Under the pieces are notes generated by a model. The model made no database searches and was not told the DNA's origin. It saw only the letters and a program-made list of their open reading frames with translations. Below are positions 36,601 through 39,600 of a DNA stretch of 64,000 bases, one piece after another. The stretch covers positions 1,001,297 to 1,065,296 of the forward strand of contig NW_019217822.1 in assembly GCF_002571385.2 (NCBI RefSeq), read 5' to 3'. How positions within the stretch are numbered: position 1 is the first letter of the stretch; each line of letters opens with the position of its first letter. The translations under genes and the position numbers were made by a program. This DNA is from Stylophora pistillata. Taxonomy: Eukaryota.

Positions 36601-39600
36601 TGCGTTGCTTGAAAATTTTGTCACACTTTCATGAGTGAGTAATAATAGAAAGAATTGTTACTAACTTCCTTTTAAGGTTTAACTCCAGCCAGTATATCAT
36701 GTACTTTGTACATAATTTATTAATCTTTTTTATTGTATTTTATTTGTTTCATTGGTGAATTAGCTCCATTTCAAAATTGCCTGAGTTTTAAATCTTACTT
36801 CAGTTTGAGTATTACAGGAGTTCCCAAAAAAAATTATGCTTAAAGGTATTGTTTGCCTGGGTAACGGAAGGTGCATACTGGAATGCTTTTGTTAGGAATA
36901 TTAATCTTGAGTGCTGGCCACAGTTATGTTCATTGTGTATGTCTCTTTTCAGATGTTTTGGATCATGTTTAATTTCTTTTTTCAGCAAATAGGAATCAAA
37001 CACAACCATGATCAAAGACTTTTACTGAGATACAGAAAGATCAGAGCAGTGTTTTATGGGAAAGTTCTTTTTGTATCATAATTTATGGTTTCATCTTTCC
37101 TTGGCACTTCTTGTTCGATTGTTCTTAATTATATATCATTGAGACATTGACACATTCAAACATGTACGTTTGAATGATTCATTGATATTAAATATAGAAA
37201 AGACCACTACAAGGGTTGTTGCTAAGTGCTAGCTGCTAGCAAATTTTGCTGGATGAAAAAGCAGCAACTGCCTGCTGGATTTTTGGCAGGCCATTGCCAG
37301 TTTAAGCAAAACAGGCACTTCCAAGGTCACACACTAACAATTGTTCACCACCCTTGAAGCGCCTCACTTGAAATATCAGCCACCAGCATAATTTCTAAAC
37401 TACAACCCTGCAATACATGGCTGCTTATGGAAACAATTTATTTTCTTTTTTCAGTGCTCTTAGCTCTTTTAAGTGCCAAAGAAGTCCAAATGAAAGGAAT
37501 TTGTTTCCAAAGATTTTTGTTTTAGTTATTTCAGTTTCAAAGTTACTGTATCTGATCAGGGTATACATTGCTTTTTGTTTTGTCTGCTAGTGTCTCTGTT
37601 GTGGTTCAGATTTTACCTCTGGTTTAATTTTTTCAAACCAGTTCAATTTTTGTAAGGCAGTTTTCAATCAACTGTCTGAAAAAGGGCATTCATTTTGTGG
37701 GGTGTGGATTGAAAAATGGGGCATGGCTTTTTAGGGGGGAATTCTGAAAAAGAAGTAGATGTCAGATAAAGAAAGAGATTTCTCCATTATCTCTCATCAC
37801 CGTATTATTCCTTACTCTCTTCATATCTGCTTCCATAATACTAATTTTTTTTTTTTAGACTAGGCGCTCTATCGTTATTTCAACTCACCTGGACTTGAAC
37901 CATGCACCAACATCTTCAGAATCTGTTGCCATCTCTTGGATTCATTAGGCCACGCTGGATTTCGTTGACAATCGCGCCACTTTTTACACTATTACAATGA
38001 TTATATGAAGTTCATATATTTTGAACTGCGGTATTAAATACGTATGATGCATGATCCTTCGAAGTAGATAGCGCTATTTATGCAATAGCAAAAATCAGAC
38101 CTGAAAAAAATCAGGCCTGTACGGGATTCGAACCACTGACCTCTGCGATACTAGTGCAGCGCTCTACCAATTGAGCTAACAAGCCAACTGGGAGCAGGCC
38201 ATCAAATTAATTCGATATAAACCCGTGGATGATAAATCAAACAACAACAAACATATGAAACATATGTGTGAACTGCGGTTATGAGACGTATATGAGAACG
38301 ATCCTTCGCAGTAAAGCACTATTTGAGCAATAGTGAAAATCAGACCTGAAAAAAATTTCAGGCCTGTACGGGATTCGAACCACTGACCTCTGCGATACTA
38401 GTGCAGCGCTCTACCAATTGAGCTAACAAGCCAACTGGGAGCAGGCCATCAAATTAATTCGATATAAACCCGTCAGTTGGCTTGTTAGCTCAATTGGTAG
38501 AGCGCTGCACTAGTATCGCAGAGGTCAGTGGTTCGAATCCCGTACAGGCCGGACTTTTTTCAGGTCTGATTTTCGCTATTGCATAAATAGTGCTATCTAC
38601 TGCGAAGGATCATGCATCATACGTATTTCATACTGCAGTTCAAAATCACGGGTTTATTACCAATCAACTTAATGGCCTGCTCCCAGTTGGCTTGTTAGCT
38701 CAATTGGTAGAGCGCTGCACTAGTATCGCAGAGGTCAGTGGTTCGAATCCCGTACAGGCCGGACTTTTTTCAGGTCTGATTTTCGCTATTGCATAAATAG
38801 TGCTATCTACTGCGAAGGATCATGCATCATACGTATTTCATACTGCAGTTCAAAATCACGGGTTTATTACCAATCAACTTAATGGCCTGCTCCCAGTTGG
38901 CTTGTTAGCTCAATTGGTAGAGCGCTGCACTAGTATCGCAGAGGTCAGTTGTTCAAATCCCGTACAGGCCTGATTTTTTTCAGGTCTGATTTTCACTATT
39001 GCATAAATAGTGCTATCTACTGCGAAGGCTCGTGCATCATACGTTTTTACACTATCATAATTTATTAGTCCCAGGCTCCCCTCTGCTCGGCCAAATCTAT
39101 TATTAAATACATTCGTATGCTTACACGCATGCACATTTGATGCAAATTTGGACTTCGAAAGAAATAATGACAGAGAACTCATGCGTTTCAAAAGAAATTT
39201 TTCTTCAAAAATGACATGATTTCATAGTGGAACAAACCAAAAATGAATCGCTAGTAACTTTGTTTATCGACGACAGCTTTTTTGACAAGGTGAAGACATA
39301 AATTATTTAAAAAAGCAAACAGATAAGTCCCTTGAACCAGATTCAGGAGAACAAACTGACTTACAAATGACCAAATGGGAGATGGACACAATCAAGTGAA
39401 AGAACTAGTCCTATGAAAATGATTCACTGGTAATGAAAGATAAAAAGAAAGTAATCCCCAAAGGACAGCTTCATAATGTTTTAAGCCTTGCACACAAACG
39501 CATAAATCACAGAGGAAGACAGATATCCAGAAAATGGATCAACAATAACTACAGCAAAGTCAACAGTAAAGTAATCTGTCTGTTTGTTGCTTCATGTCGT

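Follow-up and report, generated by a model that had tools for sequence, protein, structure and literature searches.

How did five tRNA-like units, two on the minus and three on the plus strand, come to lie between the two copies of a single 12-bp duplication? Within the window (the whole 64-kb stretch of Stylophora pistillata DNA that was analysed), ARAGORN and Rfam called these five heads as a complete set, with a spacing of 247 bp on the minus strand and of 210 bp on the plus strand, where the heads start at 38479, 38689 and 38899 and units 1 and 2 are 100% identical. The 12-mer TTTTTACACTAT occurs in the window at 37981 and 39044 only, and an A-box, a B-box and a T run of 6-7 can be read in the block sequence. 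An initial annotation had reported the five heads, both periods, the identity of the first two plus units, the bracketing 12-mer and the Pol III-type signals of the units, and all of these held up. The block is one insertion of an abundant, protein-less, tRNA-headed tandem family and is an ordinary member of that family. Its parts, and those of the transposon that surrounds it, are as follows.

37597-40313, plus strand: host DNA transposon with terminal inverted repeats and a 4-bp TCTC duplication
37981-37992, plus strand: left copy of the 12-bp target-site duplication (match to TTTTTACACTAT, empty-site comparison)
37993-38185, minus strand: left-arm terminal unit (subfamily A, bases 1-193), ending at the long ('tail') site; head at 38113-38185
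38186-38432, minus strand: inner unit of 247 bp, assigned to subfamily B, with identical copies elsewhere, possibly an assembly chimera; head at 38360-38432
38433-38473, minus strand: bases 207-247 (leader) of one more B unit, forming the 5' end of the left arm
38473/38474: inversion junction, blunt
38474-38688, plus strand: right arm, a 5-base leader and a 210-bp A-type unit in which a 38-bp deletion (unit 168-205) removes the tail hairpin
38689-38898, plus strand: second exact copy of the 210-bp unit, a recent local duplication or an assembly loop
38899-39043, plus strand: right-arm terminal unit (subfamily A, bases 1-145), ending at the short site
39044-39055, plus strand: right copy of the 12-bp target-site duplication (match to TTTTTACACTAT, empty-site comparison)
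39409-39966: integrase-core ORF remnant of the host element (rve match, E 1.3e-7, just under the Pfam cut-off)

The host element, which we take to be Ginger-like, has eight close paralogues, all without the insert. The 12-mer is single in all seven whose site was inspected (exact in three, with substitutions or a small deletion in four), and the eighth aligns contiguously with the insert absent. Because these empty paralogues carry the site once, the duplication in the window is real and marks a single insertion. The initial annotation had reckoned with two contrary findings, a 12-mer already doubled in empty host copies and a separate duplication for each monomer in other arrays; the 12-mer proved single, and other arrays of the family have one duplication around the whole array and none per monomer.

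Three further features of the window were recorded. An exon-sized frame with a RabGAP-TBC domain lies at 44723-45049, and the block may sit near this gene or in its intron. A second tRNA-like head, distinct from those of the block but with a leader of similar CTCCCAGTT type, missed by ARAGORN and Rfam at gathering score, lies at 46869-46960 and has relatives in L166, L167 and L236. Finally, a long degenerate 27-bp minisatellite, with 12- and 21-bp repeats interspersed, occupies 26118-30183.

The repeat family and its insertion anatomy

A 31-mer from the shared head has 7,391 exact matches in the genome (reversed-pattern control, 0), and searches of the genome with the unit recovered dispersed arrays of two subfamilies, A with a unit of 248 bp and B with a unit of 247 bp that is 85% like A; the two have a 74-nt head in common. 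Bases 1-73 of each unit form the tRNA-like head; after it come a hairpin whose loop contains the T7 run, three more hairpins and a leader. Judged from its sequence, the head is tRNA-like and not a sound tRNA: it has two T-stem mismatches and one anticodon-stem mismatch, and it scores 39-49 bits with Rfam, where the 33 top-scoring tRNA matches of the genome reach 63-76. A functional tRNA-Thr(AGT) gene was rejected on these grounds, and such repeats may account for many of the genome's tRNA-Thr gene calls. The head likely supplies a Pol III promoter. The unit contains no ORF, its longest stop-free frame being 56-73 codons. Rfam at E ≤ 10 finds no ribozyme in the unit, and the motif that we take to be the hammerhead core is absent from both strands of A and B, while the same scan was positive in 5/5 Penelope-like ends. 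Bases 67-206 of the unit fold better than 200/200 shuffles (z -4.5); base pairs altered on both sides number 2/28, which is weak support given related subfamilies and a structure drawn from one sequence.

The anatomy of insertions was examined in clusters of listed 31-mer matches on contigs C1-C2, a sample chosen to avoid best-hit bias. These 53 clusters include 31 that are head-to-head, 20 with a single arm, 2 mixed and none that is purely tail-to-tail. Among the 27 head-to-head clusters whose ends are free of N, 23 have a duplication of at least 11 bp (12-14 bp), as against 3/150 mismatched flank pairs. The other four gap-free clusters have no 11-bp duplication, and two of them are like-ended (144/135 and 199/201); L038 and L042 have like ends and lack a duplication, and like-ended head-to-head cases were found only among loci without one. 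Single-arm, 5'-truncated arrays with 13-14-bp duplications were also seen (L050, L139, L193).

We then tabulated 42 loci (23 from the unbiased sample, 18 best hits and the window), all head-to-head with a duplication; head-to-head loci that lacked an 11-bp duplication or had N at either end were left out, as were L013 and L043, which have complex joins. In every tabulated locus the two arms end differently, one at a short site (~146) and its partner at a long site (~194), with the short end at 142-148 in 40/42 and the long end at 190-197 in 41/42; the interval between them, the tail, is about 48 nt. Duplications measure 11-14 bp and are 77% AT, and the target matches the element over 0-3 bases (6 in one case). 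The arms of the window end at unit 193 (left) and 145 (right) and conform exactly to this pattern. Such a tabulation of arrays, ends and duplications had been proposed in the initial annotation, and it modified one of that annotation's claims: the internal inversion stands, but it belongs to the usual form in which the family inserts, with two fixed 3' ends, and is not an accident resembling a template switch. The claim that these are not ordinary SINE monomers is upheld by the lack of a monomer start, a simple-repeat tail or a per-monomer duplication.

Two observations on individual arrays concern targets and junctions. L140 and the first cluster of L156 are unlinked subfamily-B insertions in opposite orientation with an identical 12-bp duplication, which hints at a repeated target or a weak site preference. 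At the 5' junction of an arm, L040:2960-3520 and L045:2730-2810 contain small tandem repeats of element sequence (54 bp and ~25 bp), in L040 also including flanking sequence, that represent either stuttering synthesis or an assembly loop.

The interior of the window block calls for more caution than its ends. The arm ends and the duplication are secure because they are anchored in unique flanks; five units are confirmed as assembled heads, but not secure as the original insert. We lean, with some reservation, towards the explanation that the arms and the duplication are real but that misassembly or a later rearrangement produced the five-unit interior; this is compatible with the mobilisation proposed below. 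Over the first 140 nt, the inner B unit shows 0 differences from the commonest B unit and the flank-anchored units show 3 and 5 differences from A, while plus unit 1 equals plus unit 2 and each is 7 sites away from plus unit 3. The left arm stops at B207, as do L134, L137 and L192 against N gaps, this stop adjoins a common polymorphic base, and L179 is a mirror chimera. Family-wide, interior units differ by 0.43 per 140 nt as against 2.09 for terminal units (101 and 33 comparisons), and such uniformity is what assembly collapse or homogenisation gives. Against an altered interior, the block contains no N, the 210-bp haplotype has private variants and thus exists at least once, L143 joins at B207 too and does so without N, and a template switch could have occurred within the 74 nt of head that A and B have in common.

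The 38-bp deletion junction was found at the window locus only, where it occurs twice. The initial annotation was right that the minus and plus spacers differ; since both terminal units are of subfamily A, the inner 247-bp unit is the commonest B and the 210-bp unit is unique to the locus, this difference probably lies outside the insertion event. Among the pieces listed, DNA contigs of four sequencing runs on 38433-38690 include none that spans the inversion or the deletion junction, and these runs may lack the allele. A 5' hotspot at B207 was considered and rejected, the two apparent cases extending to 204 as a B variant. Elsewhere, near-duplicate neighbouring flanks split by N (L172:1285-3114 and L244/L245) indicate redundant haplotype or gap-fill copies in the assembly.

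Template, enzyme and competing explanations

We consider it very probable that the block is the insertion of a young, high-copy, non-coding 248-bp tRNA-headed tandem, likely mobilised by a Penelope-like reverse transcriptase with a GIY-YIG endonuclease; the initial annotation had pointed to Penelope-type mobilisation, and the insertion anatomy fits. The enzyme, likely a dimer, would nick both strands ~12-13 bases apart to leave 3' overhangs, and each DNA 3' end would prime a cDNA within one RNA, one for each start site, both sites lying in a conserved stretch of hairpins that follows the tRNA head. Synthesis of the two cDNAs would halt at variable points, and the products would then be joined head-to-head, in some cases at palindromes. 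Such cDNAs, being of like polarity, should pair only at palindromes, which would explain the palindromic junctions: among 34 N-free junctions, 4 overlap by at least 8 bases (3 of them at palindromes), 13 overlap by 1-7, 2 are blunt and 15 contain extra bases.

This mechanism would use a template longer than a monomer started at the tRNA head. In a set of 58 gap-free arms (N-free inserts of up to 1,000 bp, window excluded, arms not aligning to their 3' end skipped), 41 run upstream of the tRNA start and 23 are longer than one unit, so that the template must be a multimer or a circle, as had been surmised in the initial annotation. Arm 5' ends are scattered, and only 2/58 fall at unit 1-3. Stalling of reverse transcriptase at the tRNA T-arm was not accepted as an account of these ends, 6/58 lying at unit 57-67 where 2.6 are expected (p 0.04 before correction for 6 bins).

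The terminal units of both arms are A/A at 26 loci, B/B at 16 and mixed at none of the 42, and the two arms of a locus resemble each other more than arms of different loci do (permutation p 0.0095 for A, 0/2000 for B). This agreement in subfamily and in finer shared variants points to a single template per insertion, although same-subfamily arms could alternatively come from a single active source locus or from later conversion. The same counts weigh on the proposal that Penelope-type machinery primed each DNA end on a separate RNA and that the cDNAs were then joined, which we regard as decidedly unlikely. A dimer could hold two RNAs, and differing variants occur in the arms or interiors of the window block, L029 and L042. 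Nevertheless, terminal units of different subfamilies are absent throughout the table, independent draws would give the 23 unbiased loci (14 A/A, 9 B/B) with a probability of ~3e-7, and the strict pairing of short and long ends demands coordination.

A tRNA-derived SINE mobilised by a LINE, with L1-style twin priming and tandems formed by later local duplication, would account for the tRNA-like head with A and B boxes and the T run. It would likewise accommodate the 11-14-bp duplications and the 5' truncation, which are also compatible with LINE machinery, and local expansion would give array interiors more uniform than their ends. We judge this to be highly improbable. A poly-A or simple-repeat tail is absent from both ends of family inserts at the 42 tabulated loci. 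Twin priming relies on scattered internal microhomology, whereas the second primed end is here fixed at 190-197 with almost no target homology. The arms that contain sequence upstream of the tRNA start, the rarity of arms starting at unit 1-3 and the one duplication per array have already largely refuted it. A DNA-based foldback or MITE-like element, with long inverted arms of tandem subunits, would provide inverted arms within a single duplication but is extremely unlikely, given outer ends that are different sequences and wobble by several bases, the single-arm 5'-truncated arrays noted above and duplications of variable length.

For the preferred Penelope-like mobilisation, a read-through transcript of an existing tandem has about an even chance of being the template, a covalent circle is almost as probable, and a template of another kind is improbable. 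The T7 run directly behind the head counts against the preferred explanation, because a Pol III transcript should stop there, before reaching the start sites. A more specific and rather doubtful proposal is that the tRNA mimic takes over the role of the hammerhead: the host's tRNA-processing enzymes would cut a read-through RNA into unit lengths, a ligase would close the circle, and an asymmetric Penelope-like dimer would copy this one molecule twice, with one subunit starting at ~146 and the other at ~194. If true, Penelope-like elements would have a class of circular parasites that are ribozyme-free and tRNA-processed, and repeats of the OAX, PolIII/TAN and Rana/polIII types might be explained in the same way.

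RNA-seq of other samples gave ~10,000 of 12.9 million reads per run matching the unit, in both directions about equally; most derive from diverged copies, with ~7% at at least 99% identity. In line with the two tabulated end sites, reads leave the unit for diverse sequence at 147 (405-618 reads per run, agreement 0.43-0.46) and at 193 (274 reads, listed for one run). The balance of directions and the small share of near-identical reads count against the preferred explanation, as does the following: no sharp RNA starts or ends were found in the reads on the unit, and reads cross the unit boundary, as tandem DNA would also give.

The genome contains several young families with reverse transcriptase and GIY-YIG domains, with copies up to 99-100% identical (L064-L113, L224-L243). 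Among 13 autonomous Penelope-like loci that were checked, five combine head-to-head arms, one ending short and one with the tail, with an 11-14-bp duplication; in a sixth, both kinds of end lie within a TA run, and the rest are gapped, cut off or without duplication. These young families have hammerhead-like cores and tails of ~35, 95 and 110 nt, some longer than the published 30-40, and one of them inserts into TA runs. We compared the 3' part of the unit with loci around GIY-YIG/RT hits by blastn, local alignment and an nhmmer profile, scoring 100-150 of 1,500-3,000 candidates per search, a general selection not specifically targeted at the Naiad/Hydra clades. No Penelope-like 3' end sharing unit sequence was found among L064-L113, L224-L243 and L246-L263, where only separate nearby insertions were seen; the best partner alignment reached p 0.01-0.025 or lower for one of eight families, at a non-matching position. 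With no partner by sequence in the loci fetched, the assignment of the enzyme rests on anatomy. One candidate chimera, a Poseidon-type 3' end abutting unit 90-197 (L226:4290-4402), was not counted as evidence: similarity to the respective nearest sampled relative is 93% for its unit fragment and 99.7% for its retrotransposon, and an N gap lies on the far side, making a nested insertion as likely as a chimera.

Relation to known systems

If the preferred reading holds, thousands of short, young insertions of the family preserve a record of the Penelope-like reaction. Two testable rules follow: a double-primed insertion combines one short and one tail start, and its two arms derive from a single type of template. 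A further suggestion is that tRNA-headed repeats can be carried by Penelope-like rather than LINE enzymes, and the 248-nt RNA would be a convenient minimal substrate. We found no description of a tRNA-headed, ribozyme-free, Penelope-dependent element in the literature; repeat libraries and supplements were outside the scope of that search, and a library name may exist. A study of the anemone repeatome (PMC12070523) offered no parallel in the passages on the subject.

Among tandem repeats with a tRNA-related part, newt PolIII/TAN, Xenopus OAX and Rana/polIII resemble the family in their 200-360-nt units and in having no known parent SINE; their origin is unexplained and no insertion mechanism is given in the relevant passages of PMC10702118. 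Schistosome Sm/Sj alpha share a Pol III-type promoter in tandem units, and an upstream unit has been proposed to transcribe the next; in the sections of PMC6765202 that concern them they carry a hammerhead and Penelope-type ends are not described.

Animal non-LTR retrozymes resemble the family in several respects, with 150-450-bp tandem non-coding units in small dispersed arrays, longer duplications, a proposed dependence on Penelope-like elements and an occurrence in corals, but are defined, in the descriptions drawn on here, by a type I hammerhead in each unit (PMC7229834; bioRxiv 10.64898/2026.07.22.740005). The unit has a tRNA-like module instead, and the absence of a hammerhead places the family outside the retrozymes, although in its manner of working it resembles a retrozyme or a non-autonomous Penelope-like element. 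Non-autonomous Chlamys elements such as MRC1 are likewise non-coding and multicopy head-to-tail, are attributed to Penelope-like machinery and have no canonical hammerhead. They generally resemble the 3' end of a partner, whereas no such resemblance was found here in the loci fetched, and the passages of PMC8557442 on MRC1-type elements make no mention of a tRNA head.

Parallels also exist with the GIY-YIG Penelope-like elements themselves (Penelope/Poseidon, Neptune, Naiad, Chlamys), for which the portions of PMC3846280, PMC8557442 and PMC11167929 used here describe partial tandems, head-to-head joining to an inverted 5'-truncated copy, a one-ended tail, short duplications, AT-rich targets, palindromic junctions and two internal start sites. 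In PMC3846280 and PMC8557442 the inverted 5'-truncated copy, the optional tail on one end and the palindromic head-to-head junctions appear together. The anole Penelope-like protein, a predicted dimer that prefers AT-rich DNA, cuts and extends both strands from two internal start sites bounding the tail (PMC11167929); the in vitro results given there show no strand difference in start site, and the strict pairing of short and long ends reported here goes beyond them. In the parts consulted, PMC8557442 and PMC11167929 state that the origin of the tandem, inverted and 'tail' structures is unresolved. Differences are the absence of an ORF and a hammerhead from our family and the presence of a tRNA-like head, together with a tail of ~48 nt as against the 30-40 nt reported for Penelope-like elements, and duplications of 11-14 bp as against 8-10 in the corresponding section of the rotifer paper. 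From these comparisons, the family is best read as a likely ribozyme-free, tRNA-headed, non-autonomous Penelope-like element.
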